DNA of 64,000 bases, from positions 20 to 64,019 of the forward strand of contig CALXTY010000001.1 in assembly GCA_944391535.1 (NCBI GenBank). Reading direction: 5' to 3'. Source of the DNA: an uncultured Alphaproteobacteria bacterium (GTDB lineage: Bacteria; Pseudomonadota; Alphaproteobacteria; CAAGCB01; CAG-977). The translations under genes and the position numbers were made by a program. Below, one piece after another: positions 1,728 to 24,349 of the stretch. Under the pieces are notes generated by a model. It had not been told where the DNA came from, did not search any database, and saw only the letters and a program-made list of their open reading frames with translations. The first letter of the stretch is position 1; the number at the start of each line of letters is the position of its first letter.

Positions 1728-1892
1728 ATGGGAAATATTAAAGAAGGAGTCACGATTTCCGCCGGACTGACAGCTCCGGCTTGGATGCCGATCTTTAATG
1801 AATGGGTCGGTTGCCTGATCGGAATTGCAACCTTACTCTATATTTGCGTTAAAATTTATGTCTTGCTTCGTCAATCGGGAGACGCCGAATGA
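1728..1892 (+). CDS. Putative holin (54 aa, single TM; below the ORF-track size cutoff)
   Basis: ATG at 1728 is preceded by AAAAGGAG. The product MGNIKEGVTISAGLTAPAWMPIFNEWVGCLIGIATLLYICVKIYVLLRQSGDAE has one hydrophobic helix and a charged C-terminus. Its stop overlaps the endolysin start (ATGA). Confidence 0.4.
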   Translation: MGNIKEGVTISAGLTAPAWMPIFNEWVGCLIGIATLLYICVKIYVLLRQSGDAE

Positions 1893-2347
1893 TTTCAAAA
1901 AAAAGCATGGATCTGATTAAAACATTCGAAGGTTTTTCCGCTTTGGAATATACCTGTGTCGCCGGAAAAAGAACAATCGGTTACGGCCATGTGTTGGCGC
2001 CGGGTGAAAAGTATGTTTGCGGACTGTCCGAACAAAAAGCCGAATATCTTTTAAAACAAGATCTTGATCTTATGGAAAAAGCTTTAAACCGTTTGGTAAA
2101 AGTTCCTTTGGCTGCTCATCAAAAAGAGGCTCTGCTCAGTTTTATTTTCAATGTCGGAATAAGAGCTTTCCAAAAATCGACGTTATTAAAGGAATTGAAT
2201 GAAGGCAATTACGATCAGGTCCCCAAACAACTTCAGCGATGGATCTATGTTAACGGAAAACCTTGTAACGGACTTATCCGGCGAAGAAAGGCCGAAGCGG
2301 ATTTATTTGAAAAACGAGCGGAACGGAAACGTTCCGTTTTTTTATGA
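1889..2347 (+). CDS. Phage lysozyme / endolysin (glycoside hydrolase family 24)
   Basis: N-terminal motif LIKTFEGFSALEYTCVAGKRTIGYGH matches the GH24 (T4/lambda R-like) catalytic E...D...T signature. Confidence 0.8.
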   Translation: MISKKSMDLIKTFEGFSALEYTCVAGKRTIGYGHVLAPGEKYVCGLSEQKAEYLLKQDLDLMEKALNRLVKVPLAAHQKEALLSFIFNVGIRAFQKSTLLKELNEGNYDQVPKQLQRWIYVNGKPCNGLIRRRKAEADLFEKRAERKRSVFL

Positions 2348-2358
2348 AAGGAAAATAA

Positions 2359-2574
2359 ATGAGTTTTGATAATGTTGTTTCTTTTTTTGAACAGGTCGTC
2401 TTTTGGTTCGGAACGGTGGTCGCCGCCGCTTCTGTGATTGTGAAAGCGACACCGACCCAAAAAGACGATGATTTCTTGGCGAAAATCGTCAAAGTGCTGG
2501 ATCTGGTTTCTATTGTAAATGCTAAAATTCAGGAAAACGAACAAAACGTAAAGAGCGAAAAAAATGTCGTTTAA
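2359..2574 (+). CDS. Small membrane protein of the lysis cassette (putative antiholin or lysis accessory)
   Basis: 71 aa with one hydrophobic segment (FWFGTVVAAASVIV), between the endolysin and the spanin genes. Confidence 0.3.
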   Translation: MSFDNVVSFFEQVVFWFGTVVAAASVIVKATPTQKDDDFLAKIVKVLDLVSIVNAKIQENEQNVKSEKNVV

Positions 2575-2773
2575 TGAATTCGGCATCATCGGTATAGGAG
2601 CAAGCTTGTTAGTGGGATTGCTTTCTTTCTTCGCCTATAAATTTGGACGTGCAAAGGAAAAATTAGATCATGAAGAAGAAAAATCAAAAACTCTGGCCTA
2701 CATTCGCGCTTTACGTCAAAATCTGGATGATTGTGATGTCGTTAAGCGCTTGCACGATACGTTTAAACGGTGA
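2564..2773 (+). CDS. Putative i-spanin (Rz-like)
   Basis: N-terminal TM (IIGIGASLLVGLLSFFAY) followed by a charged periplasmic coiled-coil. Another gene is embedded in its +1 frame. Confidence 0.4.
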   Translation: MSFNEFGIIGIGASLLVGLLSFFAYKFGRAKEKLDHEEEKSKTLAYIRALRQNLDDCDVVKRLHDTFKR

Positions 2774-2879
2774 TTTTTGTGATATATACTCGCCCGTTTT
2801 CCCGGATTATGAAAATGATACGCCGGAAACGATCCGACAGATTGATGAAAACAATATCGTTTATTTGGAATGTTTTTAA
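2670..2879 (+). CDS. Putative o-spanin (Rz1-like lipoprotein), overlapping/embedded architecture
   Basis: Starts inside the i-spanin gene in another frame. MKKKNQK n-region, then lipobox L-S-A-C (MSLSAC). Confidence 0.4.
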   Translation: MKKKNQKLWPTFALYVKIWMIVMSLSACTIRLNGDFCDIYSPVFPDYENDTPETIRQIDENNIVYLECF

Positions 2880-2885
2880 GAAAAA

Positions 2886-2909
2886 CAGCCCGAAAGGGCT
2901 GTTTTTTTA
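2886..2909. terminator. Rho-independent terminator (CAGCCCgaaaGGGCTG + T7), likely bidirectional
   Basis: Perfect 6-bp stem with GAAA loop, followed by TTTTTTT and preceded by AAAAA. Lies at the end of the lysis cassette and the 3' end of the convergent Sel1 gene. Confidence 0.6.
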
Positions 2910-3671
2910 AAAAGATCTTCTTCTTCTGTTGCCGACACGATTCGAATTTTCTTCTTCTTCTTTTTCTTCTTCTTCTTGTGAAAAAAGACGGGAAGAGCGT
3001 TTGTTTTGCTCTTTTTCTTTGCTGGCATTTTTTTCTTCTTTTGCTTTTTGATCTCTGATCAACGCTTCAATCAAAGGATTATCGTAAACATTTTTTTCTT
3101 CGTCTTTGGTTTCGTATTTCGAGATATCAACTCCGAAATCCATATATTGTTGCGCAATTTTATCTTCTAGTTTATCCAATTCCAATTGTTGATGCTGATT
3201 AAACAGATCAATCAAATCCAAAGTGCTTTGAATCATCGGATTAGCTAATGAAATCTCATCCAAATTCATACGGGCTTCCAATCTGTTGCGGAACGGAACC
3301 GCTTTCTGATTCCCTAGTAAAACGGCTGTCTGATACCACTTGTAAGCAAAAATATTGCTTTGACTGACACCGTTTCCTTTTTCGTACAGCTTCCCCAGTT
3401 CCAATTGAGAAGGTGTATGGTTTCTCATCGCAGCAGAAGTAAAACAGTCGGCCGCGGCCATAAAAGCATCTTCGTTAGCGTCGCTTAACAGTAACATACC
3501 GCGTTCGTATAAAGCTTCCGGATCTGTCATTTTTGCGCATACTGCGCTGGCGTTGATATATTTTGCCAAAGTATTTTCCTGTTCCCCTTCAGAAGCTTTG
3601 AAGCTGGTCTGGGCGTAAACAGAACCATTTGCGATAAAAAAAATCAAAAATATCAGAAATGCCTTGAACAC
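2907..3671 (-). CDS. Sel1-repeat (TPR-like) secreted protein with C-terminal poly-Glu tail
   Basis: Signal peptide MFKAFLIFLIFFIANGSVYA. Sel1-type repeats (GxxYxxG..Ax.WYxxAA pattern). C-terminal EEEEKEEEEN is encoded by a (CTT/GAA)n tract at ~2930-2990. Confidence 0.7.
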   Translation of the reverse strand: MFKAFLIFLIFFIANGSVYAQTSFKASEGEQENTLAKYINASAVCAKMTDPEALYERGMLLLSDANEDAFMAAADCFTSAAMRNHTPSQLELGKLYEKGNGVSQSNIFAYKWYQTAVLLGNQKAVPFRNRLEARMNLDEISLANPMIQSTLDLIDLFNQHQQLELDKLEDKIAQQYMDFGVDISKYETKDEEKNVYDNPLIEALIRDQKAKEEKNASKEKEQNKRSSRLFSQEEEEKEEEENSNRVGNRRRRSF

Positions 3672-3740
3672 GAGATCATATCCTTAAATAATAAGTGACA
3701 GTATCATATTTTTATAAAGTTTAAGCTAAATAGGCAAAAA

Positions 3741-5774
3741 ATGAAACGGCTTTTATATTTTTTTTCGTTTTTCTTTTTTTTAATTTTTTTTCAAACTTCT
3801 GTGCAAGCGGCAGTTCAAGCGGATTTGTTACTACAAAAAGAAAATATTTCCGCGGGACAAGAATTTTTTCTTGCGTTGAAGCTGTCTTTACCGTCCGGAG
3901 GACATGTCTATTGGCAAAACCCGGGAGATTCCGGAGAACCGATTGAATTGAAATTAAAGCTGCCGGAAGGATTTCGCGAAATTCAACGTTATTGGCCGGC
4001 TCCTGAAAAATTCACGGTAGGACCGTTCACCGAATACGGTTATAAAAATCAGGCTTATGTCGTGGCGAAAATCAAAGCTTCTGAAAATTTAAAACAAGGT
4101 GAGGTCTTTGTCATTGATGCCAAAGCCACATGGCTGTTTTGCCATAACGAATGCATACCGATGTCTCAGGATTTGTCTGTTTTGGGAATCGGCGGAAAAA
4201 TAAATGAGAGAGAAAACAAGGAAATCAGTCGTGTCATTCAAAATATGCCGAAAGAAAATAAAGAAACGCTCTTTTTTGAAACACCCGATACTTTGATTTT
4301 ATCCCTACCGGCTCATAAAGAGGTAAAAAGTGCTTATTTTTTCTCTAAGAATCTGAAAATTTTGAATTATTCCGCTACGCAAAATTTAAAGGAAGCCGGA
4401 GGAAAATTCTATCTATTCATGAAAAAATCCGATACGATGTCGGCTCAGCCGTTGGATTTGTTGGAAGGAACTCTTGTCCTTTATGATGAACGGCGTGAAC
4501 CGGTATGTTCTTTTGATGTTAAAGCATTGAAAACGGATGAAAATCTTCCTGTTTTTACAGAACCGTTCGTGTGGATCGATTTTTTAACGGCTCTGTTTTT
4601 CGCTTTTTCCGGCGGCGTTTTGTTAAATCTTATGCCGTGTGTTTTTCCGGTGTTGTCATTAAAAGCTTTTCGTTTGTTGAATGCCGCGCGGGATGTTTCC
4701 GTAGCCGATCGGCGTAAGGCGGGGTTAAGCTATACCGCAGGAGTTTTGTTGTCTTTTTGTTGCATCGGTTTAATTCTGATCGCTTTGCGAGCCGCCGGAT
4801 CTGAAATGGGGTGGGGATTCCAATTACAATATCCTCCGTTTGTTTTGGGGTTGTGTTTGTTCCTGTTCTTTTTGGGATTGGTTTTTTCGGATATTGTCAG
4901 CGTTGGCGAAAAATTATCCGCATTCAGTTTGAATGTCGGACGAAACTGGGGGGATTTCGGAACGGGAGTCCTGGCTGTTTTGGTCGCGACCCCTTGTGCC
5001 GCACCGTTTATGGGAACGGCTTTGGGATACGGATTGATGAATCCGGCCGTTGTGACAATGTGTGTCTTTTTTGCAATGGGATCGGGGTTGGCTTTCCCGT
5101 TTTTATTGCTGGATTTCTATCCTGCTTTGGGGCGCTTCTTACCTAAAGCGGGGCCGTGGATGGTGATGTTCAGGCAATTTTTGGCTTTTCCTTTATACGC
5201 CGCCGCCGCTTGGTTGCTTTGGGTCTTGAGCGCTCAAGAGGGAAGTGTGGCATTGGCGGTCGGCTTGAGCTGTGTCGTCGCAGTTTCTTTTGCCGTATGG
5301 TTGGCCGGAGCCGCTCAATCGAAAAACTTAAAAAGAATTTCTGTCTTTGTAACGCTTTTTACGCTCTTTTTAATTATTGTTGGCCTTTATTCTCTTTCTC
5401 CTGTCCGTTTGTCGGAAAAAGAAAAAAACAGGATTGATTGGATTGATTATAATGCCGCAGAAATTCAAGACTACAGACAAGCCGGAGTGCCGGTGTTCAT
5501 TAAATTTTCCGCCAAATGGTGTTTGACTTGTCTGGTCAATGAAAAGACTGTTTTCAGTTCTGAAAAAATCGCAAAAGCCTTTCGTCAAAAAGGCGTTGTC
5601 GCTTTTTCGGCCGACTGGACAAACCGCAGCGATGAAATTACCGCGGCTTTGGAAAGCTTCGGACGAGGGGGAATACCGTTGTATGTGTATTATGCGCCTT
5701 ATTCGAAACAGCCTCGGATTTTGCCTCAACTGGTTACTTCAAAAACGATTTTGTCTTTGGTTGACGGATTGTAA
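3741..5774 (+). CDS. dsbD: Thiol:disulfide interchange protein DsbD
   Basis: 677 aa with a signal peptide, a periplasmic N-domain, a multi-TM core containing conserved Cys residues, and a C-terminal thioredoxin-like domain with WCLTC (CxxC). Confidence 0.8.
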   Translation: MKRLLYFFSFFFFLIFFQTSVQAAVQADLLLQKENISAGQEFFLALKLSLPSGGHVYWQNPGDSGEPIELKLKLPEGFREIQRYWPAPEKFTVGPFTEYGYKNQAYVVAKIKASENLKQGEVFVIDAKATWLFCHNECIPMSQDLSVLGIGGKINERENKEISRVIQNMPKENKETLFFETPDTLILSLPAHKEVKSAYFFSKNLKILNYSATQNLKEAGGKFYLFMKKSDTMSAQPLDLLEGTLVLYDERREPVCSFDVKALKTDENLPVFTEPFVWIDFLTALFFAFSGGVLLNLMPCVFPVLSLKAFRLLNAARDVSVADRRKAGLSYTAGVLLSFCCIGLILIALRAAGSEMGWGFQLQYPPFVLGLCLFLFFLGLVFSDIVSVGEKLSAFSLNVGRNWGDFGTGVLAVLVATPCAAPFMGTALGYGLMNPAVVTMCVFFAMGSGLAFPFLLLDFYPALGRFLPKAGPWMVMFRQFLAFPLYAAAAWLLWVLSAQEGSVALAVGLSCVVAVSFAVWLAGAAQSKNLKRISVFVTLFTLFLIIVGLYSLSPVRLSEKEKNRIDWIDYNAAEIQDYRQAGVPVFIKFSAKWCLTCLVNEKTVFSSEKIAKAFRQKGVVAFSADWTNRSDEITAALESFGRGGIPLYVYYAPYSKQPRILPQLVTSKTILSLVDGL

Positions 5775-5777: not shown

Positions 5778-7235
5778 TTATTTGGGCGGTTTGCCTTTTA
5801 TCGCAACGATTTTTAGACTGTGAGGAAAGATTTTTTTCCCGTCGGGAACCGATTGCGGGACAAAACGAATCACGGCCGTCCCTTCATGGAGAACGGTGAA
5901 TTGTTTGCTCAGCCAGCTTTCTTGACGAGCTGTTTGTGCGGACAGCGGTGTTAAGATAAAAGAGGGATTGGCTCCGAGCAATCCGGACGGATCTTGCAGG
6001 ATGAGGTTATATCCCGTATTTTTAATGTACATATGTCCGCCTTTGCGTGTTGCGTCGTTTTCATATAAAGGCGTATAAACCGATAACCTGATGATGTCTC
6101 CGACCATGACGGGGATAGAGCTGTTTTCTTTTTTTAAAGTCAGATGAATAAATCGTGGATCTGACGGTCTGAAATAAAGCGCCATAATGGCTTCTTGATC
6201 TTCGGGTGTCGGCGCGGGCAGTTTTTTCGTTTCCAGATCTGGGTTTTCTTTTTGTTCGGTATTCATTCCGACCCATGTCGGCATCAATGGGAAAAAGGTT
6301 TTATATTTATTGTCGAAAGCGTCTTTTTTAATAAATTTCATAAAAGGAGTTTCTTCAATCATTTTTTCGGGCGGCAAAGGCAGCGCTTTCGGGATATTAA
6401 ACTGTTTCAGATCTTTTGGAGCCAAGACGGTTTTTAACCAATAAGGTCTGAATTTTTCCAGATAAGCTTTGTGAAAATCGGATAAATTTTTTTGAGATTC
6501 CTCGAACAGGTTTTCAAATCTCAGATAAATTTTTTTATCTTTTTCCCGATTGACGCGATTCATTCCCAGTTCGCTCAATAAGACGGCTTGCAGAAAGTCT
6601 TTTTTATCGGCGTACAATTGTGCCAGATTATAGAAGGCGTAAAGATTGGAGCTTAATACGGCTTGTTTTAAAAGATCTTCGGCTTTTTTTTCATCTTTTT
6701 TGACGCCGATCCCAAATCTGTAATAAACGCCTAATGTATTCATGGCGCCGCTGTGATTGTTTTTGATGGCTTTTTGAAAATAATTTGCGGCGGACGCATA
6801 ATTTCGTTTCACGCCGACACCTTCTTGATAGAGCAGTCCCATTTGAAAAGCGGCATTACGATTATTTGAATCGGCTTGATATTTCAAATGATGAACATAC
6901 ATTGCGCCAGAAAATCCGCTGATTTTTTCTTTAAAACGATCAAGTATGCCGATTTTATCAAGAGCGGACAAATCGCCTTTTTCAAGGTCTTTTAAAAATG
7001 CGGCGTAAGGAATGGTTTTATTTTGCTCTTTTTTCATGATTAACTCGCAGACGCGAACGACATATGCGGCGCTGGGTTGTTCTTTTTCATATTTTTTCAT
7101 GATGCGCAAAGCTTCATTGCAATTTCCCGCATTGAAGGCTTCCACGCCGACGTCGAAAGAGTCTCGATCAACGGTTTGAGCCTGAAGTCCCGTTAAGTCG
7201 GAGAAGAAAAAAAGAGAAAGAAGAAAAAAAATCAT
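5778..7235 (-). CDS. Sel1-repeat protein (EnhC/LpnE-like), secreted
   Basis: Signal peptide, then multiple Sel1 repeats (AxxYFQKAIKNNHSGAMNTLGVYY, etc.). Confidence 0.7.
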   Translation of the reverse strand: MIFFLLSLFFFSDLTGLQAQTVDRDSFDVGVEAFNAGNCNEALRIMKKYEKEQPSAAYVVRVCELIMKKEQNKTIPYAAFLKDLEKGDLSALDKIGILDRFKEKISGFSGAMYVHHLKYQADSNNRNAAFQMGLLYQEGVGVKRNYASAANYFQKAIKNNHSGAMNTLGVYYRFGIGVKKDEKKAEDLLKQAVLSSNLYAFYNLAQLYADKKDFLQAVLLSELGMNRVNREKDKKIYLRFENLFEESQKNLSDFHKAYLEKFRPYWLKTVLAPKDLKQFNIPKALPLPPEKMIEETPFMKFIKKDAFDNKYKTFFPLMPTWVGMNTEQKENPDLETKKLPAPTPEDQEAIMALYFRPSDPRFIHLTLKKENSSIPVMVGDIIRLSVYTPLYENDATRKGGHMYIKNTGYNLILQDPSGLLGANPSFILTPLSAQTARQESWLSKQFTVLHEGTAVIRFVPQSVPDGKKIFPHSLKIVAIKGKPPK

Positions 7236-7951
7236 TATTTTGCTTTTTTAATCGGTTCTGAAGAACGGTTTAGGAAAATATTTTCAAATTTTTTTTGTTG
7301 ATCGATACTTTTTTCCCATCGTTTGGCGGTATGAATATTTTCTGAAATATTTCCGGAACCGTTTTTATAAATAACGGCAAGAGCCATTTTTGCGTTAATA
7401 TCGCCTTGTCTGGCCGCTTTTTGATAAAAGTAAACGGCTTTTTTCATGTTTTTTTCGACATATTCTCCGTTTTCATACCAACGAGCCAACATGATTTGCG
7501 CTTCAGCATCTCCGTTTTCTGCCGCTTTTTGAGCATATTGCAGTCCTTTTTCAAAATCTTGAAGCACATTTTCTCCGTTTATATAAATCAAAGCCATGGT
7601 CATTTGCGCCGGCGCATAGCCTGCATCCGCTGCTTTTTCGTAATAGTCCAAAGCTTTTGTAATATTAACGGGCATTCCTTTTCCCGTAAAATTCATGGCT
7701 CCCAAGGCGAAGGCCGCTTCGGGAAGATTCAGCAGATCGGCTTGAGCAAAATAAACCGACGCTTTTTGATAATCGCCTTTTTCATAATAGCTTAAAGCCC
7801 TGTTTAGCGGATTATAGGAAAAGTTCTTAGGTTGTCGGTTGAGGAAAAAAAAGAAGGTGATTAAACATAAAACGCCGATAAAAATTAAAGCCTTGTAAAG
7901 AGAAATCCGTTCTTTTTTCTGCATTATTGTTTTCCTTTTTCGGACTTTCAC
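7235..7951 (-). CDS. Sel1-repeat protein with N-terminal membrane anchor
   Basis: Contains ALGAMNFTGKG, YYEKAADAGYAPAQ and WYENGEYVEKNMKKAVYFYQKAA Sel1 repeats. Stop/start abuts the upstream Sel1 gene. Confidence 0.7.
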   Translation of the reverse strand: MKVRKRKTIMQKKERISLYKALIFIGVLCLITFFFFLNRQPKNFSYNPLNRALSYYEKGDYQKASVYFAQADLLNLPEAAFALGAMNFTGKGMPVNITKALDYYEKAADAGYAPAQMTMALIYINGENVLQDFEKGLQYAQKAAENGDAEAQIMLARWYENGEYVEKNMKKAVYFYQKAARQGDINAKMALAVIYKNGSGNISENIHTAKRWEKSIDQQKKFENIFLNRSSEPIKKAK

Positions 7952-8053
7952 TGGATAAAAGCAGTATAGACAATCAAAGGTATTTTAAAAGTAAAAAGAT
8001 TGAAAAAACTTTTAATTTTTGCTAATTTTTATTTGTTTTTTATGGAGACCCGA

Positions 8054-9448
8054 ATGTCTTTTTTGTGTCGCGAGCAAATAAAGTCGTTTCATTTCACACG
8101 TTGTTTTTTTGATGAAGAAACTAAAACGGCTCATTTGTTGTACGCGTTTAACGACGGGGCGATAGAGTTTGAAGAAAAAATCCGCTTTTGTGAAGCCCCT
8201 TCAATTCCGGATCCCGCCAGACGTCAGGTTTTGGAAATATGTTTGCGTTTGCTTCATTTGGCCGCCGGTGTCAGTTACTACAAATTATTTGTTCCTGATG
8301 AAATTAAGGTTGATTGCACACGTTTGTCAAAACGGGAGGCGGATTTTTTTAATTTGTTTTATACGGCGGGTTTGGGAGAATTTTCTTACAGAAACAATGT
8401 GGCTTTGAATATCCGTTTTCCCTTTGATGCCGACCGCACGGACGATTCGGTCGCATCAATAACATTGAAAAAGCGGATTGTTGTTCCCGTGGGCGGCGGA
8501 AAAGATTCGATCGTTTCGATAGAGGCTTTGAAATCATCAAGCTTTTCTCCGATTTTATTTTCCGTTGGTTTGCCGCGACCGATTAAAGAAACAATAGAGA
8601 TATCAGGATTGCCGTCAATTTTGGTTCAACGTCATTTATCCGATCAGCTTATAAAAATCAATGAATGCTCGAATAAATATCATGCATTAAACGGCCATGT
8701 CCCGGTCACGGGGATCATTGCGTTTATTTTAATGGTCGCCGCCGTTTTATATGACTTTTCTGCTGCGGCTTTGTCAAATGAACGTTCGGCAAATGTCGGG
8801 AATACGGAAAAAGACGGTCGCGCGATTAATCATCAATGGAGTAAATCTTTGGAATTTGAACGGGCGTTTGACAGTCTGAAATCTTTGATTCTTCCGGAAT
8901 TTCATTATTTTTCACTTTTGCGTCCGCTGTCTGAATTGACGATAGCTTCTTTATTCGCCAAGACAAAAAAATATGATTTCGTTTTTACCAGTTGTAATAA
9001 GGCTTTTAAACTTGATGAAAATAAAAGGTTGGATCGTTGGTGCGCGAATTGTGATAAATGTCGTTTCGTTTTTTTGGCTTTGGCTCCTTTTATGGACAAG
9101 GAAAAGTTGATTCGCATTTTCGGGCGCAATATGCTAAATGATCTCTCACAGCTTCAGGGATACAAAGAGCTGTTGGGCTTGTCGGCCTTTAAGCCTTTTG
9201 AGTGCGTCGGAGAGATTGAAGAATCTGTATTGGCTTTTTTAATGTTGTCGGACAGTCCGCAATGGCGTGATGAAGCTGTTATCAAGACATTGTCAAACGA
9301 CGTTTACCTGCATTATAAGGAAAAAAAAACAGAGTTTATGAAAAGAATTTTTTCGTCATCGTCTGATCACTTGATACCGGAGGAATACGCTAATGTTATT
9401 GGAAACTTTAAAAAACAGACCTGTCACAGTGTGGGGGAACGGTATTGA
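8054..9448 (+). CDS. PP-loop ATP-pyrophosphatase-family protein; candidate UDP-MurNAc-L-Ala-L-Glu epimerase (MurL-like)
   Basis: SGGxDS-type PP-loop (VPVGGGKDS) and C-terminal CxxC(D)KC cysteines. GGAGA RBS lies 5 nt before the ATG at 8054 (the ORF track starts at 8000). The 3' end overlaps a murD located outside a dcw cluster. The MurL assignment is an inference. Confidence 0.45.
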   Translation: MSFLCREQIKSFHFTRCFFDEETKTAHLLYAFNDGAIEFEEKIRFCEAPSIPDPARRQVLEICLRLLHLAAGVSYYKLFVPDEIKVDCTRLSKREADFFNLFYTAGLGEFSYRNNVALNIRFPFDADRTDDSVASITLKKRIVVPVGGGKDSIVSIEALKSSSFSPILFSVGLPRPIKETIEISGLPSILVQRHLSDQLIKINECSNKYHALNGHVPVTGIIAFILMVAAVLYDFSAAALSNERSANVGNTEKDGRAINHQWSKSLEFERAFDSLKSLILPEFHYFSLLRPLSELTIASLFAKTKKYDFVFTSCNKAFKLDENKRLDRWCANCDKCRFVFLALAPFMDKEKLIRIFGRNMLNDLSQLQGYKELLGLSAFKPFECVGEIEESVLAFLMLSDSPQWRDEAVIKTLSNDVYLHYKEKKTEFMKRIFSSSSDHLIPEEYANVIGNFKKQTCHSVGERY

Positions 9449-10670
9449 AGGCCGTGCGGTAACAATTTTTTTGGAAAAACGCAATTGCACGGTAAATGTT
9501 GTGGAAGATCCCGTATCCATCCCTTTTTCCGGCGTTATTGTTAAATCGCCTGGGATCAGTTTGTACCGTCAAGAAATCAAGATGGCAAAACAATACGGAG
9601 CTATTTTTACTTCCGCGACGAATTTATTTCTGGAAGCCGCTCTTTTGCAACCGGAATACAGACCGTTTTTGATCGGCGTGACAGGAACGAAAGGCAAATC
9701 GACGACGTCTTCTTTGATTGCTCATTTGTTAAAAGCGCAGGGACATCGCGTTGCTTTGTGCGGCAATATCGGCGATCCGTCGATTTCTTATGCCGAAGAC
9801 TTGGATAAATATGATATTTTTGTCGTTGAAATGTCCAGTTATCAATGTGCGGATTTGCAATATTCATTTGATATTTCGGTTATTTTGAATTTATATCCGG
9901 AACATATTGATTGGCATAAGACTCATGAACAATATTTTCATGACAAATTAAATATTTTGGCGCATCGCAAACCGGAACAAGGTGTCATATTGAATGCGCA
10001 AGATCCTTTAACGGCGATTTATGTTAAAAAACCGGAAAATGCCGTTTATTTTGACGCATTAAATGCGATACATATCATGGGGGACTATTTTTATGACGGA
10101 ACGAAAAAATTATTTAAAACGGATATCGTTCCGTTACGCGGGGAACATAATTTGAAAAATGTTTGTGCGGCGCTGACTGCTGTTGAACAAGTCAGCGGTT
10201 CATTGATCGGCTGTGAAGAAGCGTTAAAGACGTTTCAAGCCTTACCGCATCGGTTGCAAACGGTGGCTGTTAAAAACGGCGTGACATATGTGGACGACAG
10301 TATTTCAACGACGCCGGAAACGGCGATTGCCGCTTTAAAATCGTTTGGTTATTCCAATGTTGTATTAATAGCCGGCGGTTATGACAGAGAACAAGATTAT
10401 CAAGAGTTGGCCTCTTTTGTTGCTCGAGGAGGCGCTTCGGCTGTTGTTGCTTTGCCTCAGACGGGGCATCGTTTGGCGGAAAGCATTTCGGACAAGGGCG
10501 GAAAAAGCGTTATGGCGATAAATATGAAAGATGCGGTTCAGAAAGCGGCATCTTTGGCTCATTTCGGCGGTGTGGTTCTTCTTTCTCCCGCGGCGCCGAG
10601 TTATGGCACGTACAAGGATTTTCAAGAGCGCGGAGAAGATTTTTTAAGATGTGTCAACGAGTTGGAATAG
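9393..10670 (+). CDS. murD: UDP-N-acetylmuramoylalanine--glutamate ligase (MurD family; possibly the L-Glu-adding MurD2 type)
   Basis: N-terminal Rossmann GNGIEGRA, Mur ligase P-loop GVTGTKGKSTT, and C-terminal domain. Neighbours are not mraY/ftsW. Confidence 0.8.
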   Translation: MLLETLKNRPVTVWGNGIEGRAVTIFLEKRNCTVNVVEDPVSIPFSGVIVKSPGISLYRQEIKMAKQYGAIFTSATNLFLEAALLQPEYRPFLIGVTGTKGKSTTSSLIAHLLKAQGHRVALCGNIGDPSISYAEDLDKYDIFVVEMSSYQCADLQYSFDISVILNLYPEHIDWHKTHEQYFHDKLNILAHRKPEQGVILNAQDPLTAIYVKKPENAVYFDALNAIHIMGDYFYDGTKKLFKTDIVPLRGEHNLKNVCAALTAVEQVSGSLIGCEEALKTFQALPHRLQTVAVKNGVTYVDDSISTTPETAIAALKSFGYSNVVLIAGGYDREQDYQELASFVARGGASAVVALPQTGHRLAESISDKGGKSVMAINMKDAVQKAASLAHFGGVVLLSPAAPSYGTYKDFQERGEDFLRCVNELE

Positions 10671-17054: not shown

Positions 17055-18311
17055 ATGCCTGCCGGCTGGAAGTTTTTTTTCAGATTATTTGTGCTGGTGG
17101 CGCTTTGTCTGTGCGGCGGCAGTGTATTCAGCTTTTATTCTTTGCTTTACGAGCAAAACGGTGTTGAGGAATCAACGGTTGTTTTGGTTGAGAAGGGTGA
17201 AAGTTTAAATCAGATCGCCCGTCGTTTGAAAGAAAACGATTTATTAAGCAGTATTGCCGTGTTTAAAGTCGCGGCAAGACTTTCAGGAAAATCTACGCGT
17301 TTAAGAGCCGGAGAATATCGTATTCCGGCTCATGCAAGCGCTAAAGAGATTTTGGATATTTTGGTTTCCGGTCAAACGGTCGTGCGTCGTGTCACCATTC
17401 CCGAAGGAAAAACCAGCCGACAAATTTTTGATTTATTGTTACAGACGCCCGGTCTTTATGGCGATTTGCCGTCTCCGCCCCCTCCGAACGGCGCTTTATT
17501 GCCGGAAACATACGTGTTCAGTTACGGTCTGCCGCGCACGATTATTTTGGAACGTATGTTAGGGGGAATGCAAAAAACGATTGAAGAATTATGGCCTTTA
17601 CGGGATCCGGATTTGCCGTATACGACGAAGGAAGAAGCTTTGGTGTTGGCTTCGATTGTTGAAAAAGAGACTTCCGTTCCCGAAGAACGCGCCAGAATAG
17701 CGGGCGTTTTCGTTAATCGTTTAAGGAAGGGAATGCGGTTGCAGACTGATCCGACGGTGATTTATGCGGTCACGAACGGAACGATGGAACTGAAACGTCG
17801 TTTGACGCATAAGGATTTAAGAACGGATCATCCTTTTAACACTTATATGAACAAAGGACTGCCGCCGGCTCCGATTTGCAATCCCGGACGCGAATCGATT
17901 TTGGCGGTATTGCGACCGCAAAAGACGAACGAGATTTATTTCGTGGCGGACGGGACGGGCGGTCACGTTTTTTCAAAAACGTTTGAAGAACATAAACGCA
18001 ATATAGCCAATTGGAAGCGGGCGAGACGTAAAAAACGAACGGCTGCCGTAAAGAAAAAACCGACAGTTCAAAAAACGGTGAAAAAGCCTCAAGCGCAAAA
18101 GACACCGACAAAGAAGACTGTGGCAAAACCGGCGCAATTCGCTCCTGCCGTTGCCGAAACGGCGGAGGAAATAAAGAAAAAAGAGATTTTGGATCAACAG
18201 GATTTGTCATTGGATATTGTCGATGACGCTTTAATCGAAGCGACAAGCGAAAAACCCGTAGATCCGGCGAAAACGCAGACAGGATCGGCGCAGGCGGAAG
18301 GAACGAAATGA
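17055..18311 (+). CDS. mltG: Endolytic murein transglycosylase MltG (YceG) with an atypical C-terminal Lys/Pro/Thr-rich extension
   Basis: N-terminal TM and a YceG-like domain (ETYVFSYG, VTNGTMELKRRLTHKDL). Conserved position after fabF. Roughly 100 extra low-complexity residues at the C-terminus. Confidence 0.75.
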   Translation: MPAGWKFFFRLFVLVALCLCGGSVFSFYSLLYEQNGVEESTVVLVEKGESLNQIARRLKENDLLSSIAVFKVAARLSGKSTRLRAGEYRIPAHASAKEILDILVSGQTVVRRVTIPEGKTSRQIFDLLLQTPGLYGDLPSPPPPNGALLPETYVFSYGLPRTIILERMLGGMQKTIEELWPLRDPDLPYTTKEEALVLASIVEKETSVPEERARIAGVFVNRLRKGMRLQTDPTVIYAVTNGTMELKRRLTHKDLRTDHPFNTYMNKGLPPAPICNPGRESILAVLRPQKTNEIYFVADGTGGHVFSKTFEEHKRNIANWKRARRKKRTAAVKKKPTVQKTVKKPQAQKTPTKKTVAKPAQFAPAVAETAEEIKKKEILDQQDLSLDIVDDALIEATSEKPVDPAKTQTGSAQAEGTK

Positions 18312-19051
18312 AGATTTTATTTCTTTTTGCCATTCTTTTTTGCACACAGGCCTTTGCTTCATTGGAAGCCGGACAAAAAGCCTTTATTCAAGGCGATTAT
18401 AACAAGGCGTTCGAACAATGGCGTCAAGCGGCGGAACAAGGGGATTTAACGGCGCAACGCAACATTGCGCATTTATACCGTTGGGGAAAAGGTGTTCCTC
18501 AAGATTTAATGCAGGCGGCTTTTTGGTATTATACGGCGGCAAAGGGCGGATTGGATACGGCTCAATATAATTTGGGCGTGATGTATTTGCGCGGGGAAGG
18601 CGTTCCCAGAAACGAAGAAGAAGGCATCATTTGGTTGGAACGCGCGGCGGAACAGAACAATGAAAAAGCAAAGAAAAAGTTGGCTCATTTAAAAATCGAA
18701 ATTGATCACGAACTGCCGACGGAAGAAGATTTGCTTAAACCCGTAAAGCATAAACCTCAGCCGTCTTCAAAAAGTCCGTCAATAAAAGTGATGACGGTCA
18801 GTCGAAAAGAACCGCCTTTATACGCTCATTTGGCGTCTTATTATACTCAGGAAACCTTGGAAAAGGGGTGGGAAGAATTAAAGCAGACTTTCCCCGAGCT
18901 TTCAAAATTCAAGACTCTTGAAACGCAGGTGACGTTGCCCGAAAAAGGGAAATACATCCGTTTGTATATCAAGGGGAAACCTGAAGAGATCAAACAAGTT
19001 TGCAGTCTGTTAAATGCGAAGAAACAATATTGCCTGATCAGCTATCCGTAG
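18308..19051 (+). CDS. Secreted Sel1-repeat protein with C-terminal SPOR-like domain
   Basis: Signal peptide, Sel1 repeats (NIAHLYRWGKG, YNLGVMYLRGEGV), and a C-terminal ~80 aa resembling a SPOR fold. Start overlaps the mltG stop (ATGA). Confidence 0.55.
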   Translation: MKILFLFAILFCTQAFASLEAGQKAFIQGDYNKAFEQWRQAAEQGDLTAQRNIAHLYRWGKGVPQDLMQAAFWYYTAAKGGLDTAQYNLGVMYLRGEGVPRNEEEGIIWLERAAEQNNEKAKKKLAHLKIEIDHELPTEEDLLKPVKHKPQPSSKSPSIKVMTVSRKEPPLYAHLASYYTQETLEKGWEELKQTFPELSKFKTLETQVTLPEKGKYIRLYIKGKPEEIKQVCSLLNAKKQYCLISYP

Positions 19052-20105
19052 GCTGTTGCGGTTCGATTTGCGTAATTTTATAAGATTTTTCGGCTTTTTT
19101 ATTTGACCAGATCAATTTGGCATAAGTACGCATATCGATCACTTTATCCGTTTCATCGAGGATTTCTTGTCCGAGGATGGCTTCCAGAACGTCTTCCATC
19201 GTGACGATTCCCAACCATGTTCCCAGTTCGTCATAAACGACTCCGATATGGTTGTGAGAACGGAGCATTTCGCGGAAAACGTAATCGACACTGGAAGTGG
19301 AAGCGATTTCCAGAATGGGGCGAACGGAATGATCGATTTGTAATGTCGGATCTTTTCCCAACATATCGGATTTATGAACATACCCCAAAAAGACTTCTTC
19401 ATCCTCATTTTTCATGACGGGATATCTTGAAAACGAATGTTGCGTAGCGATTTGAATAAATTCTCTGACAGAGATGCCTGCAAGGACGGTGGCGCAGACA
19501 TTACGGGGTGTCAGCAGATTTTTAATTTTAATTTCTTCCAGATTTAAAGTGTTGCAAATCATCTTATATTCATCGTCATCGATGAAATTGGCCGTATGTC
19601 CCATTTTAGTCAAGGCCTTGATTTCTTCGCGAATATCCGTTTTAACGCCGTTTTTCGGCGTGATCATTTTGGTCAGCAATTCAAACAGGATCAGGAAAGG
19701 TTTTAACAGGAATAACATAATTCCCAGAACGAAACACAGGAAACCGACCAATTTATACCAGTAGGTGGCACCGATGGTTTTAGGAATGATTTCGCTACAC
19801 GTCAGAATGGCGACTGTCATGACGGCGGAAGCCACGGCGACATAGTTTGATCCGAACACGACGGCGACTTGTGCGCCGATACAGGAAGCGCCGGCCGTAT
19901 TGGCGATCGTGTTCAACATTAAGATGGCGGCCAGAGGCCTGTCGATGTGTGACTTCAGGAAGGAAATTTTTTTATACAGGTTGGGTTGTTTTTCTTCCAA
20001 TCGGGCGATATAGCTGGGAGTAATGGAAAGCAAAGAGGCTTCCATTAAGGAACACAGAAAGGAAATTCCGACGGTTAAGATGACCAGAATGACGAGAAGG
20101 GTCAT
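19038..20105 (-). CDS. CNNM/CorC-family transporter-associated protein (DUF21 + tandem CBS domains)
   Basis: Four N-terminal TM helices (DUF21) followed by a CBS pair. Typical of the HlyC/CorC family. Confidence 0.7.
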   Translation of the reverse strand: MTLLVILVILTVGISFLCSLMEASLLSITPSYIARLEEKQPNLYKKISFLKSHIDRPLAAILMLNTIANTAGASCIGAQVAVVFGSNYVAVASAVMTVAILTCSEIIPKTIGATYWYKLVGFLCFVLGIMLFLLKPFLILFELLTKMITPKNGVKTDIREEIKALTKMGHTANFIDDDEYKMICNTLNLEEIKIKNLLTPRNVCATVLAGISVREFIQIATQHSFSRYPVMKNEDEEVFLGYVHKSDMLGKDPTLQIDHSVRPILEIASTSSVDYVFREMLRSHNHIGVVYDELGTWLGIVTMEDVLEAILGQEILDETDKVIDMRTYAKLIWSNKKAEKSYKITQIEPQQPTDS

Positions 20106-20171
20106 GAAAAGCCTCTGATAAAAAAAGGTAATAAAGAATAAGTAGCACCAAAGAGAAAGCGGGTAAAGTGA

Positions 20172-20203
20172 AAACGGCGGAAAGAGTTTCCGCCGTTTTT
20201 TTA
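20172..20203. terminator. Hairpin terminator (AACGGCGGaaagagtttCCGCCGTT + T-run) downstream of the antiporter gene
   Basis: 8-bp GC-rich stem, T7 run on the + strand and A-run upstream. Positioned 3' of the minus-strand aaxC-like gene. Confidence 0.45.
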
Positions 20204-20219: not shown

Positions 20220-21677
20220 TTATACTTTAATGATGCCTCTCCAGAACAGGAAAAGAGCGAAGATCGAAACGATCAGCAACAGCCATGCGAACCATATTTC
20301 GCGTTTTCCGAATATTGTTTGATTCGGATCGTTTTCTTTTCTTGACCAGATAAAGACAGGGATACCGGCGGTCAGGAACAGGACGGCCATTAGCAGATAT
20401 TCCAGTCCCGCCGCATAGATCAGCCATACGGCATAAGCGGATCCGAGGATCGAACAGATCAAAGCTCCGGATCTCGGGACGGCGGCGTTTGCCGGATATT
20501 CACCGTCTTCACAGATTTTCCACAGATAAGCCATACTTGACAAGTAAGCCGGCAGCACCATGACACCCGTAATGGAGAGCATTGTATTCCACGCGTTATT
20601 GGAAAAATAGACCATTAAGATCGCCAATTGCATCAAGGAGCTGGTGACCCACAAAGAAACGGACGGAGATTTATGTTCGTTTTCTTTGGCGAAGACTTTG
20701 GGGAAAGTGCCGTTTTGCGCTGCGGCGAAAGGAATTTCGGCTGTAATCATCGTCCACGCCAACCAACTGGCAAGAACGGCGATCAACAAACCGATATTCA
20801 TCAACCAACTGCCCCAATTTCCGACGACTTTTTCCAAGACGCCGGCGGTGGACGGATTCGGTACGGCGGCCAGTTCGGCTTGGCTCATAAAACCGTACGG
20901 CAGAACGGAGAGCAGCACATAAATAATCAGACAACCCAAAAATCCGATAAAGGTGGCTTTACCGACTTCGGCTTTATTTTCGGCTCTGTCGGACAGCACG
21001 ACGGCACCTTCGATACCGATGAACGCCCACAGCGTGACCAACATCGTTCTTTTGACCTGATCGGGAACGGATCCCAACGCCGCTTGTCCGTGAGAAACCA
21101 GATTACCCCAGAAATCGACTTCGAACTGATGAATTTTAAAGGCGAATATCATAATCAGGATAAAGATGAACAAAGGCAGGATTTTGAATATGGTTGCGAT
21201 TGTGTTAATAAAGCTGGCTTGTTGTACGCCGCGCAGAACGACGAAGTTGAAGAACCAGATCAGGACGGATCCGCCGATAATGGAATAAAGGTTGTTTCCG
21301 CCTTGGAAATAGGGCGGGAAAAAGTAATTCAAGGCGTCCATCGTAATGACGGCATAACCGACGTTTCCGAAGATTTGGCAAAGCCAATATCCCCAACCGA
21401 TTGTAAATCCCATAAAGGGACCGAATCCTTCTCTGGCGTACATATAGATGCCGGCGGTCAGATCCGGTTTTGCATCTGAGAGAATACGGAAAGAGTTTGC
21501 AAGAAAATACATACCGATGCCGGTAATCAGCCAAGCCAATAAAACGGCTCCGACGGATGCGCCGGCCGCCATATTTTGAGGCAAGCTGTAAATCCCTCCT
21601 CCGATCATTGAACTGATCACGACACTGGCCAGAGCAATCAGCCCTAATTTTTTTGTGTCATTTTGTTGCTGTGCCAT
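20220..21677 (-). CDS. aaxC: APC-family arginine:agmatine antiporter (AaxC/AdiC-like)
   Basis: 485 aa, ~12 TM, amino-acid/polyamine/organocation family composition. Lies immediately downstream of a pyruvoyl-dependent arginine decarboxylase. Confidence 0.7.
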
Positions 21678-21749
21678 TTTGATATCCTTTTAAATAAAAA
21701 AAAGCGGTATCGCTTTTTATTTAAAAAACAATACCGCTTGAAATAAAGA

Positions 21750-22331
21750 TTACAGTTTAACGGGGTCTGCCGTTTCGAAATTCAAGAATCCCAAAGCCGT
21801 CAGACAGTAAGCAAACTGTTGTGTGATATTGATATAGTTATGGAACAGTTGGAATTCGCTGTGTTTTTCAACGCCGCGTAATTCCAATTCGTGATTTAAT
21901 GACTTATTCAACCACATTTCGGCGTGTCCTTTGGCGATATCGTCATCAATGTAGGTCGGGAAATATTCGACATATTCCGCAGCCCATCCGCCGATCAATT
22001 TACCGTTTTTGTCTTTTCCCCAACAGATGCCGACGCCGGTGGCAATCGCGCGATGTTCGTTAATGCATGCTCCGTTTCCCGCAATAATGACTTCGAGAAC
22101 GGCTCCGTGTTTAAAGAATTTTGTCACCTTATCGACGGGAACGATATTATTATACAGTTCCGGCGGCAAAACGGACGTATAAGGAACAACGTTGAAATCC
22201 TGAATTTTTGCTTGTGTTAAAGCCGAGTCATAACAAAAAGTTTCAAACGGTTGCGGCGGAATGCCGTCATCTGCCTGTCCGGCTCCGCCTGTATGAAAAG
22301 CCAAAGTCGGATAGCGTGTACCTACTAACAT
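21750..22331 (-). CDS. aaxB: Pyruvoyl-dependent arginine decarboxylase (PdaD/AaxB-like)
   Basis: 193 aa. The VPYT52-S53VLPPE self-cleavage serine context is the same as in Chlamydia AaxB. Conserved GHAEMWL region. Confidence 0.75.
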
Positions 22332-22339
22332 ATCTTACC

Positions 22340-22537
22340 TCCTGAATAATATTAAAACAAAAAAGAAATTTTCCCTTTTCGTGAAAATATTAGAAAAAAA
22401 TAAAAATAAGTCATAGATAGACTTCTTTTCATAAATAATTATATCCCTATACATATATATATATTCTTGTTGTTGTATTCGTTTTTTGTTTTTATCAATT
22501 TATATTTTTTTTATTTGTTTTTATATGCGAGGATATT
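22340..22537. promoter_or_regulatory. AT-rich divergent intergenic control region (aaxB-aaxC operon vs porin gene), includes an (AT)n tract
   Basis: ~200 bp that looks strongly AT-rich by eye, with ATATATATATAT and A/T runs (curved-DNA-like), between divergently oriented genes. Confidence 0.3.
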
Positions 22538-23824
22538 ATGAGATCTATAAATCAGAAAGATGTGAAGAAAACGTCATTTTTTTCATTTGCATGCGCCGCA
22601 CTGCTATTTCCTTGCAGTGTTTTTGCGCAGCAAGTGACAGAATTTGAACTTACGGAACAATTTGACCTATCCGTTCCTCAGACAACAAAAAGCGGTAAAT
22701 TGTCAACACGGTTGAAAAACGCCATGCATCGATTGGATAATGATGTCGAAGGATTTGAAAAAAAATATAACGATTTTAAATCGAAATTATCCGACGACTA
22801 CGGCATACAATATTCTTTAGATGTGTCGTTTATGGGGCAAAAAGGCGTGCCGAACGGGGGAAAAACGGCGACACAAACCATTTATGCGCCGACTATGTCA
22901 TGGCAGATTTTTAATGATGACACATACGGTTCGGGAACGATTAATCTGTCTTATACGGCGGCGCGTTATTGGGGTAATAACGGTGAAAATATCGGGAATA
23001 ACCTCTATGTGGCCAATTCAATCAACGATTTTACGACGCCGTCTAACGCGTTTGACCAATTAAGCTATACTCAGTCTTTGTTTGACGATAAGCTTTCGAT
23101 TACAGTCGGTCAATTTCCGCTATATGATTTTGACGGGACGCAATACGATTCTAATCAACAAACGAATTTTATCAACTACGCCCTTTCTCAGAACGCCAGT
23201 GAAACATATCCGATCGCCGGATTGGGAGCGTATGTTCAGTACAATCCGAACAGTGAATGGTCTTTTGCCGGCGGTTTTCAGAACGCTCGGAACATAACGG
23301 GAGAAACGCTGTCCGCAAAAGGATGGGGGGATCATCGTTTTACAACGTTCGGGTCGATTTCTTATACACCGACGATTAACGGCCAGTCAGGGCAGTATTC
23401 CTTGTTGGTCTATAACCAGCCCAGCGTTGAAACTCAGCCTCAAAACACGACGGGCTGGTCAATCAATATGTCACAGAATTTGACGGAAAAATGGGGCGTC
23501 TTTTTGCGCGCCAACGCCGCGACCGGAGATTCCATGCCGATCACTCAGTCGTATGTCATCGGCGGAGTTTACAATAATCCTTTAAATCGCAATCCGTTGG
23601 ATCAGATCGGATTGGCGGTGGCTTACAACAAAGTCAGCAAGGAATACTTTGATTCCGCCGAACCGATGCGTCAGTATGAAACCGTATTGGAAACGTATTG
23701 GAATATCGGGATCACACAGTTTTTAACCATCGCTCCGGACATTCAGGTTTATATTCATCCGGCATCGAAACGTGACAGGGATTTCGGAACGGTATTCAGT
23801 TTACGCGGCACGATCTTGTTGTAA
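22538..23824 (+). CDS. Outer-membrane porin (OprB/AaxA-like)
   Basis: Signal peptide (AALLFPCSVFAQQ) followed by alternating amphipathic beta-strand-like sequence. Divergent from the decarboxylase-antiporter pair. Confidence 0.5.
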   Translation: MRSINQKDVKKTSFFSFACAALLFPCSVFAQQVTEFELTEQFDLSVPQTTKSGKLSTRLKNAMHRLDNDVEGFEKKYNDFKSKLSDDYGIQYSLDVSFMGQKGVPNGGKTATQTIYAPTMSWQIFNDDTYGSGTINLSYTAARYWGNNGENIGNNLYVANSINDFTTPSNAFDQLSYTQSLFDDKLSITVGQFPLYDFDGTQYDSNQQTNFINYALSQNASETYPIAGLGAYVQYNPNSEWSFAGGFQNARNITGETLSAKGWGDHRFTTFGSISYTPTINGQSGQYSLLVYNQPSVETQPQNTTGWSINMSQNLTEKWGVFLRANAATGDSMPITQSYVIGGVYNNPLNRNPLDQIGLAVAYNKVSKEYFDSAEPMRQYETVLETYWNIGITQFLTIAPDIQVYIHPASKRDRDFGTVFSLRGTILL

Positions 23825-24349
23825 ATTTTCACGAGAGCCTGCATTTATCAGGCTCTTTTTTTTATCTTTTTGCATTCTCCACAGGGTAAAGGAGTAGATC
23901 AAAATATTGGTTGTGTCTTCGATGGCGCCGCCGACGGAATGTCCGGCGATATCGTGGATCAGCCACAGGAAGCAACAAAAAATGAAACAGATTCTCAATT
24001 TGATGCCGCCGGAATAAGCGGCGACGAAAGTCGCAAGGACAACGGCGGCGACAGGTAACAAACTGTAAGGATTTTTATAACTCAGATAACCGGAAATCAA
24101 GGCGATCACCGCAAAAGGATAAGCGATGAGCGCGCCTTTGAAATGAATATTCAAATACATTCTGGTTCCGACGATGATTTTGGAAAGACAAGCGCTGAAG
24201 TTTCCCAACAAGAAATGATGCAGACTGAACAGCCCGTTTGATATGGCGAACAGGAGAAACAGTTTTTTATCGTTTTTTTGCAAAGCGCCGGTCAATGAAA
24301 CGGCGTAGGCCACATACCCCAGAATTTGCGGTAAAGAAAAAAATTCCAT
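23801..24349 (-). CDS. Inner-membrane protein, YgjV-like (183 aa)
   Basis: Six predicted TM segments. Start refined to ATG at 24349 (the ORF track starts at 24469 and would overlap hisF by 108 nt). Last gene of the ubiA-hisH-hisF operon. Confidence 0.45.
   Translation of the reverse strand: MEFFSLPQILGYVAYAVSLTGALQKNDKKLFLLFAISNGLFSLHHFLLGNFSACLSKIIVGTRMYLNIHFKGALIAYPFAVIALISGYLSYKNPYSLLPVAAVVLATFVAAYSGGIKLRICFIFCCFLWLIHDIAGHSVGGAIEDTTNILIYSFTLWRMQKDKKKSLINAGSRENLQQDRAA
23834..23863 (+). terminator. Rho-independent terminator after the porin gene (AGAGCCTGcatttatCAGGCTCT + T8)
   Basis: Perfect 8-bp stem, 7-nt loop, then TTTTTTTT. Confidence 0.6.

Follow-up and report, generated by a model that had tools for sequence, protein, structure and literature searches.

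A predicted AaxABC-type arginine:agmatine exchange module with a divergently oriented porin gene in an uncultured gut alphaproteobacterium

The window analyzed here, a 64 kb stretch of contig CALXTY010000001.1 from an uncultured gut alphaproteobacterium (of a group known from metagenome-assembled genomes (MAGs) only), carries three intact open reading frames (ORFs) whose products correspond to the components of the chlamydial arginine:agmatine exchange system AaxABC. These are a pyruvoyl-dependent arginine decarboxylase (AaxB), an antiporter (AaxC) whose gene lies 72 nucleotides (nt) downstream of aaxB on the same strand, and an outer-membrane porin (AaxA) whose gene is divergently oriented, 206 nt from aaxB:

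20220-21677, minus strand: aaxC-like APC-family basic amino acid/amine antiporter, 485 amino acids (aa), TIGR00905; predicted arginine:agmatine exchanger
21750-22331, minus strand: aaxB-like pyruvoyl-dependent arginine decarboxylase proenzyme, 193 aa, PF01862
22538-23824, plus strand: aaxA-like OprB-fold outer-membrane porin, 428 aa, PF04966 and NF051888

An earlier note on this DNA had described this trio of a decarboxylase, an APC-family antiporter and a divergent porin, and had likened it to chlamydial aaxABC. The ORFs and family matches confirm the trio, and the likeness is borne out by comparison with Chlamydia felis, by an AaxA-specific NCBIfam model and by congruent trees of all three proteins. 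In public annotation, the window proteins bear generic names, such as “amino acid permease” and, for the porin, “carbohydrate porin”.

The AaxB protein matches PF01862 with 84.1 bits, above the cut-off of 22.7. Counting residues along its translation places the context NVVPYT|SVLPP exactly at Thr52-Ser53, as the earlier note had it, and the proenzyme is predicted to cleave itself between these two residues. The first searches for AaxB homologues were dominated by near-identical gut sequences and yielded no chlamydial entry. Hence, the chlamydial loci were found with a chlamydial AaxB sequence as bait, and the comparisons used the database entry P0409 (C. felis CF0286) and the loci L088-L094, with L088 (C. 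felis Fe/C-56, AP006861.1) as the reference locus; a further entry, P0412, is from Chlamydia sp. 17-3921. The window AaxB is 73% identical to that of C. felis over the full length (194 aa aligned), and upon clustering at 50% the chlamydial AaxB falls inside its cluster. The AaxB-type family is small, with 157 representatives of 1.84 billion at E ≤ 1e-3. The gene is free of stops and frameshifts, and the Gly-Gly ahead of WAAEY is intact; in C. trachomatis D, a Gly115Arg change in AaxB gives an inactive enzyme (PMC2720952).

The profile of the AaxB family aligns in register, if weakly (E = 0.016), with the Methanocaldococcus jannaschii pyruvoyl-dependent arginine decarboxylase PvlArgDC (1N2M, 2QQD). 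In this profile alignment, Asp35, Asn47, Ser53 and Glu109 of the archaeal enzyme correspond to D35, N47, S53 and E119 of AaxB, all of which are invariant in the AaxB-family alignment (A1), and a Thr stands in the place of the archaeal Ser52, as in Chlamydia. Against the equivalog models for archaeal-type PdaD, AaxB remains below the cut-off in both cases (TIGR00286, 25.6 bits against 106.95; NF009064, 29.1 bits against 207), and genuine chlamydial AaxB likewise fails both (32.8 and 30.7 bits). A grouping with the housekeeping PdaD, which the earlier note had named as grounds for rejecting its reading, was not found: AaxB clusters with chlamydial AaxB and not with archaeal PdaD. A single-sequence match of AaxB in the PDB, to 2-aminoethanethiol dioxygenase (E = 0.0022), was rejected as spurious, with the archaeal structure being reached only weakly and by profile. 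Separately, five distant PvlArgDC relatives in the same alignment (P0251, P0254, P0255, P0264 and P0278; 35-47% identity) bear N-terminal extensions resembling signal peptides or twin-arginine signals. These extensions suggest secreted or periplasmic pyruvoyl decarboxylases, of which we know no description.

The AaxC protein matches the basic amino acid/polyamine antiporter model TIGR00905 over its full length with 584.6 bits, above the cut-off of 409, and AA_permease_2 with 203 bits; it is 61% identical to C. felis AaxC over 478 aa. Its closest solved structure is AdiC (E = 1.4e-32). In the alignment of the two, Y93, N101, W202, E208 and W293 of AdiC, which line its substrate site and gates, are conserved as Y97, N105, W217, E223 and W308. 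With the narrower models, AaxC obtains 537 bits for the arginine-ornithine antiporter ArcD (TIGR03810, cut-off 591), 476 bits for the histidine-histamine antiporter and 166.3 bits for AdiC (NF007929, cut-off 574). The genuine C. felis AaxC displays the same pattern, with 507, 437 and 155 bits, respectively. Since the real C. felis AaxB and AaxC both reproduce the sub-threshold scores of their window counterparts, these low scores mark the clade rather than a different function. A second ORF of 485 aa in the window (5778-7235) was considered as a paralogue of the antiporter and rejected, as it codes for a Sel1-repeat protein.

The porin matches PF04966 (OprB) with 100.6 bits (cut-off 22.9), and its only NCBIfam match is NF051888, “porin AaxA” (E = 1.4e-97, 327.5 bits). 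It is 39% identical to C. felis AaxA over the 342-aa barrel (E = 4e-82). The signal peptide that the earlier note had assigned to it is evident from a basic n-region (KDVKK) that leads into 19 hydrophobic residues and the motif VFA|QQ, the Ala30 of which is kept in at least 90% of 37 homologues. An AlphaFold2 model (mean confidence, pLDDT, 77.8) predicts two helices in an N-terminal extension of about 60 residues between the signal peptide and the barrel, which has 16 strands and starts at about residue 90. While no solved relative in the PDB was matched at the sequence level, the best fold match of the model is the Pseudomonas putida OprB (4GEY; TM-scores 0.69/0.71, E = 1.2e-19), at 17% identity. 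An OprB-like fold at such low identity to OprB itself indicates that the protein has the OprB fold but belongs to the AaxA subfamily. Thus, with 39% identity to AaxA against 17% to OprB, the unrelated OprB sugar porin that the earlier note had allowed for is not what is encoded here.

We then surveyed the locus among relatives. A scan of GTDB species genomes recovered 581 stretches with AaxB relatives, and the counts given here are for the best 80 of the 581, in which AaxB is at least 79% identical; taxon labels of MAGs (Opitutales, Elusimicrobiales, Mailhella and others) are as deposited. The aaxC gene is immediately downstream of aaxB in 75 of these 80 loci, and the flanks of 36 include a gene for an AaxA-type porin. 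The porin is divergent from aaxBC, as in the window, in 25 loci; the remaining arrangements are B-C-A (four), the chlamydial order A-B-C (three: L033, L034 and L074), an upstream porin with a gap (three) and B-A (one). Four MAGs labelled “Rickettsiales” have aaxB without aaxC. The co-occurrence of the same three families in Chlamydia and in 36 of 80 species is an association far beyond chance.

Neighbor-joining trees, which are distance-based, were computed from the 80 genomes closest to the window together with the chlamydial loci. The split between chlamydial-type and gut-type sequences obtains 100% bootstrap for both AaxC and AaxA, in trees that have no outgroups, and is weak for AaxB (56%), which is short and evolves slowly. 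In the rooted tree, the window AaxB groups with the chlamydial clade, as its sister, though with a weakly supported root (54-56%). Among the gut-type sequences, the subclades of the porin agree with those of AaxB plus AaxC at 90-100% bootstrap. This match between the trees implies that the three genes have been inherited together even where their order differs, and it strongly supports the porin as a part of the system.

Compared with the AaxABC of Chlamydiaceae (CPn1033-1031 in C. pneumoniae), all three components are orthologous, with the porin as the third part. The proteins of the window and of C. felis are also close in length (AaxB 193 and 195, AaxC 485 and 486, AaxA 428 and 444 aa, respectively), with the Thr52-Ser53 site present in both. 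The differences lie in organization and host. In Chlamydia, aaxA-aaxB-aaxC are on one strand and co-transcribed (PMC2720952), whereas the porin of the window is divergent, with its own terminator. Further, a terminator-like hairpin parts aaxB from aaxC in the window, as against spacers of 8-22 nt in Chlamydia. The one-strand order is a feature of organization and not of the biochemical definition of AaxABC. The Chlamydiaceae are obligately intracellular, whereas the window is from a gut-associated alphaproteobacterium. Hence, the parts and the predicted chemistry are those of Chlamydia, without a new mechanism; what is new is the organization (divergent porin, internal hairpin), the host and a distinct clade.

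Other known systems were compared as well. The enterobacterial acid resistance system 3 (AR3), comprised of AdiA and AdiC, shares the import of arginine, its proton-consuming decarboxylation and the export of agmatine, and AdiC is homologous to AaxC. However, AdiA is a large pyridoxal phosphate enzyme unrelated to AaxB, and AR3 has no dedicated porin. The archaeal PdaD/PvlArgDC shares PF01862, the pyruvoyl chemistry and the aligned catalytic residues with AaxB, but it is a very distant biosynthetic enzyme of 165 aa, with Ser52-Ser53 at the cleavage site and no linked antiporter. Likewise, P. putida OprB has the 16-strand barrel and PF04966 in common with the window porin, but is linked to sugar uptake genes rather than to aaxBC.

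As to the host, the earlier note had taken the DNA to be gammaproteobacterial. This is contradicted by the near-identical proteins and contigs, all of which are labelled as MAGs of uncultured Alphaproteobacteria or Rhodospirillaceae from gut or rumen; the named close relatives are labelled “MAG: Alphaproteobacteria bacterium”, “uncultured Rhodospirillaceae” or alike and come from the human gut, including Hadza samples, the rumen and other animals. The nearby DnaX carries DUF3646, a domain typical of Alphaproteobacteria. The identical AaxB protein is found in at least 22 metagenome contigs and in the MAG GCA_964319645.1, always among the same neighbors: UbiA, HisH, HisF, YgjV, aaxA / aaxB, aaxC, CNNM, Sel1, MltG, FabF and others. 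The G+C content of the module is in line with that of the surrounding DNA, and the flanking synteny persists in relatives with porins down to about 55% identity. Accordingly, the module looks long-resident rather than recently inserted. The lateral transfer suggested by the earlier note is plausible, in either direction, given that MAGs with the labels of several phyla carry the module. The earlier note had also suggested an adaptation to acidic vacuoles. This finds no support: the module is carried by MAGs from gut and rumen, with no sign of an intracellular lifestyle.

Three further loci deserve mention. In a “Rickettsiales”-labelled gut MAG (L027, 7992-9853), aaxB is directly followed by a porin, with no antiporter nearby and a VirB4 type IV secretion gene close by. 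In the tree, this porin joins chlamydial AaxA at 95% bootstrap, yet its branch is long and the grouping is therefore only a lead; the 454-aa neighbor of the porin was considered as a replacement transporter and rejected, being a soluble protein. The AaxB entry P0418 (“MAG: Victivallaceae bacterium”; loci L093/L094) has precisely the gene neighborhood seen in Chlamydia (aro genes, aaxABC, DAO, mdh, pgi), which means that either the Victivallaceae label is doubtful or a deep chlamydial lineage is at hand. The locus L091 (loci L091/L092) has aaxA (519 aa)-aaxB-aaxC with a gene for an ArtJ-like arginine-binding protein nearby and neighbors without a family match.

The non-coding DNA in and around the module contains the following elements:

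20170-20200, minus strand: G+C-rich hairpin, 14 pairs, about 20 nt past the aaxC stop (called on the plus strand by the scan)
21702-21739, minus strand: terminator-like hairpin with T-run, 17 pairs, from the terminator scan, in the 72-nt aaxB-aaxC spacer (21678-21749)
22332-22537, both strands: divergent aaxB/aaxA intergenic region of 206 nt with a GC of 0.19; presumed site of both promoters
22414-22425, minus strand: conserved core GAAGTCTATCTA, kept across related species in the alignment and found once in the 64 kb
23833-23857, plus strand: terminator-like hairpin with T-run, 9 pairs (5 G-C), tail TTTTTTAT, from the terminator scan, 9 nt past the aaxA stop

The hairpin between aaxB and aaxC, just upstream of the ribosome-binding site of aaxC, has a minimum free energy of -20.9 kcal/mol (z = -5.9 against shuffled sequences). 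A hairpin with a T-run recurs in 47 of 81 aaxB-aaxC spacers, in 45 different sequences, and two compensatory pairs are seen among close relatives. All chlamydial-type loci and 22 others have short spacers of 8-25 nt, and the chlamydial ones are without the hairpin. This element could be a partial terminator or a stabilizer of transcript ends that sets a high ratio of enzyme to transporter. Downstream of aaxC, the hairpin at 20170-20200, when read on the minus strand, is AAAACGGCGGAA-actct-TTCCGCCGTTTT followed by CACTTT. As this is a weaker T-tail, we infer termination here, and the hairpin probably ends the aaxBC transcript, setting it apart from the downstream CNNM/CBS gene. The hairpin past aaxA falls within the 3' coding tail of a convergent YgjV-family gene.

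In the divergent intergenic region, the AT-rich character and the exact (AT)6 tract reported in the earlier note are both present, the latter at 22453-22464. Only (AT)3 is conserved between species. A role of the tract as a slippage or phase-variation switch was rejected: its length is constant in five of six conspecific contigs, with the sixth differing by a substitution, and other species have (AT)3. An AAGTC-N7-GACTT palindrome was likewise rejected as a conserved element, since across species the GAAGTCTATCTA core alone is conserved; this core is a candidate operator or promoter element.

Taken together, the locus is, with good probability, an orthologue set of chlamydial AaxABC that forms a working arginine:agmatine exchange module. 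The three proteins are orthologous to their chlamydial counterparts, their catalytic and gating residues are intact, and linkage, co-evolution and the spacer hairpin are conserved; the enzyme and transport activities, the substrate of the porin, the transcript structure and the physiological role are extrapolated from these features and from the chlamydial system. In the mechanism that we propose, AaxA, from its own divergent promoter and with its own terminator, would let arginine enter and agmatine leave through the outer membrane, and AaxC would exchange arginine (+1) from outside for agmatine (+2) from the cytoplasm. AaxB, having cleaved itself at Thr52/Ser53 to generate the pyruvoyl cofactor, would decarboxylate arginine in the cytoplasm, with the consumption of one proton per turnover. 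Each cycle would thus remove a cytoplasmic proton and export one net positive charge; through this proton consumption and charge export, the internal pH would rise and a membrane potential would build up. The aaxB-aaxC hairpin probably lets only part of the transcripts through, which would yield more of the soluble enzyme than of the membrane transporter. The benefit might be acid survival, during gastric passage or amid fermentation acids, and possibly energy conservation, with the agmatine being released to the gut lumen. Among the window ORFs of at least 150 aa that were scanned, there are no agmatine-consuming genes (deiminase, agmatinase, aminopropyl or carboxyaminopropyl) and no arginine deiminase genes, arcABC or histidine decarboxylase.

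The precedent for these activities is chlamydial. PMC2720952, in a summary of Smith and Graham (2008), reports that the chlamydial system exchanges arginine for agmatine in experiments, that AaxA stimulates this exchange and that the system protects Escherichia coli against acid shock. The AaxC proteins of C. pneumoniae and C. trachomatis D are demonstrated arginine:agmatine antiporters (PMC2720952). Acid resistance of the gut carriers would accordingly be an extension from that system.

Several points weigh against this interpretation. The porin, at 327.5 bits, lies below the equivalog cut-off of 600 of NF051888, against which C. felis AaxA scores 804 and the porin of locus L091 471 bits; as that model was built on Chlamydia, the window porin is best seen as a diverged orthologue beyond its trusted range. 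On the arginine/ornithine model, AaxC does almost as well, with its 537 bits against a cut-off of 591. A scan of the intergenic region with the sigma-70 consensus gave no promoter match, and the porin is transcribed separately, so that it need not be co-regulated with aaxBC. The window is but 64 kb of the genome, and agmatine-using genes may lie elsewhere in it. The experimental support for AaxABC comes from chlamydial members alone. Finally, exchange is not the sole context of the enzyme clade. In the fusobacterium Cetobacterium sp. 2A (L072, NZ_JACFAJ010000006.1, 7998-10629), the gene for a decarboxylase of the same tight clade, with 82% identity to the window AaxB, precedes those for an agmatine deiminase (PF04371, 329 bits) and for a CN-hydrolase of the N-carbamoylputrescine amidase type. 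Antiporter and porin are both lacking there, and the operon is one for putrescine biosynthesis. The contexts of Cetobacterium and of the window together imply that the clade serves both roles and that context decides between them.

This Cetobacterium operon, in which the decarboxylase gene has no antiporter beside it, is also the foremost argument for an alternative in which AaxB is a housekeeping supplier of agmatine for putrescine and spermidine, as is archaeal PdaD, and the transporter and porin serve the general uptake of basic amino acids. The four “Rickettsiales”-labelled MAGs with aaxB but no aaxC, and a weak match of the downstream CNNM/CBS gene product to the polyamine exporter PaeA, point the same way. 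However, the adjacency of aaxB and aaxC in 75 of the 80 species, the co-evolution of the porin, the 61% identity of the transporter to a demonstrated arginine:agmatine antiporter (PMC2720952) and the lack of agmatine-consuming genes among the ORFs scanned render it unlikely. Somewhat less credible still is that the antiporter uses another pair, arginine/ornithine as in ArcD or histidine/histamine, with its pairing to the decarboxylase being only partly functional. The higher scores for those models than for AdiC could be so read, and “aaxC”-annotated transporters of gut Bacteroidota do occur beside histidine decarboxylases (PMC8465708). Nevertheless, the genuine C. felis AaxC has the same score pattern, the chlamydial AaxC proteins tested are arginine:agmatine antiporters, and neither arcABC nor a histidine decarboxylase was found among the window ORFs scanned. 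Least probable of all is that the porin is an ordinary OprB carbohydrate porin adjoining aaxBC by chance. The generic annotation, the P. putida OprB fold, the opposite strand and the separate terminator are compatible with such a view, but not its much higher identity to AaxA than to OprB, the AaxA model as the sole NCBIfam match, the homologues near aaxB in 36 of the 80 species despite rearrangement, or a tree that mirrors that of AaxB and AaxC.

A more serious contender, which overlaps with the exchange module proposed here and concerns its purpose, is that its main role is energy conservation rather than acid survival, with the proton-motive force from electrogenic exchange and proton-consuming decarboxylation feeding the ATP synthesis of a fermentative gut bacterium. 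Precursor/product antiport coupled to decarboxylation conserves energy in lactic acid bacteria. In the window, a Na+-pumping oxaloacetate decarboxylase is encoded at 45018-48168, with an alpha subunit (PYC_OADA plus biotinyl domain) and a beta subunit (OAD_beta, 509 bits), and NhaA follows a few genes beyond (51284-52552). Together they indicate sodium-motive energy conservation by decarboxylation, and thus place decarboxylation-driven ion gradients in the repertoire of the organism. The module is also chromosomal, syntenic and highly conserved, with an AaxB identity of at least 79% across the 80 closest species genomes, as core metabolism would be. Against this stands the acid-shock protection that the chlamydial system confers on E. 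coli, as given in PMC2720952. We regard energy conservation as the main role as a tentative possibility.

Among the neighboring genes, the one next to aaxC on its downstream side, likewise on the minus strand (19038-20105), encodes a CNNM/CBS-domain membrane protein. Its synteny extends to most of the 17 species genomes closest to the window (L007-L023; L008 lacks a match), and in contig L001 its coding sequence is broken into ORFs of 61 and 293 aa. The match to PaeA has 63 bits against a cut-off of 500, and the protein might take part in the export of agmatine or polyamines. On the other side, aaxA faces the convergent YgjV-family gene, whose product has 182 aa in related contigs and which shares 24 nt with the 3' end of aaxA (23801-23824). 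Dispersed over the window are also an ORF for a phage-type lysozyme and genes for four Sel1-repeat proteins (1889-2347; 2907-3671; 5778-7951; 18308-19051); Sel1 proteins are often tied to host interaction. Past a tRNA-Ala gene (56401-56476), the G+C content drops to 0.29-0.35 for the rest of the window (56401-64000). This region codes for an ArdC-like anti-restriction/zincin protein (57541-58617), the Shedu protein SduA (58904-60319; PADLOC, 332 bits) and a Gabija system of GajB (60488-62242; 651 bits) and GajA (62257-63864; 547 bits), and looks like a tRNA-flanked defense island.

The literature that could be searched treats AaxABC as peculiar to the Chlamydiaceae and as acquired from an unknown donor, with a role debated between acid resistance, arginine depletion and agmatine production; we found no description there of aaxABC outside this family. 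Smith and Graham, in the original description of 2008, reportedly presented the porin as a component that only the system of Chlamydia has, for which a pH optimum of 3-5 is also said to have been given. In contrast to the former statement, the porin component is not unique to Chlamydia and, as judged from sequence comparisons, neither is the system a chlamydial speciality, with related copies being common in gut and rumen bacteria. The Chlamydiaceae are held to have gained aaxABC by horizontal transfer after their split from the Parachlamydiaceae (PMC2720952), and the orthologous trios of the gut and rumen offer a pool of relatives for testing the origin of the chlamydial genes. It is conceivable, if still rather speculative, that AaxABC is a widespread porin-coupled exchange module of gut and rumen bacteria, especially of uncultured Alphaproteobacteria, that the ancestor of the Chlamydiaceae acquired it there and that its carriers are notable producers of agmatine in the gut lumen. 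The comparisons also correct the generic database names “carbohydrate porin” and “amino acid permease”, and they mark out a group of gut bacteria that have never been cultured as probable converters of arginine, from the diet or the host, to agmatine, a host-active amine.

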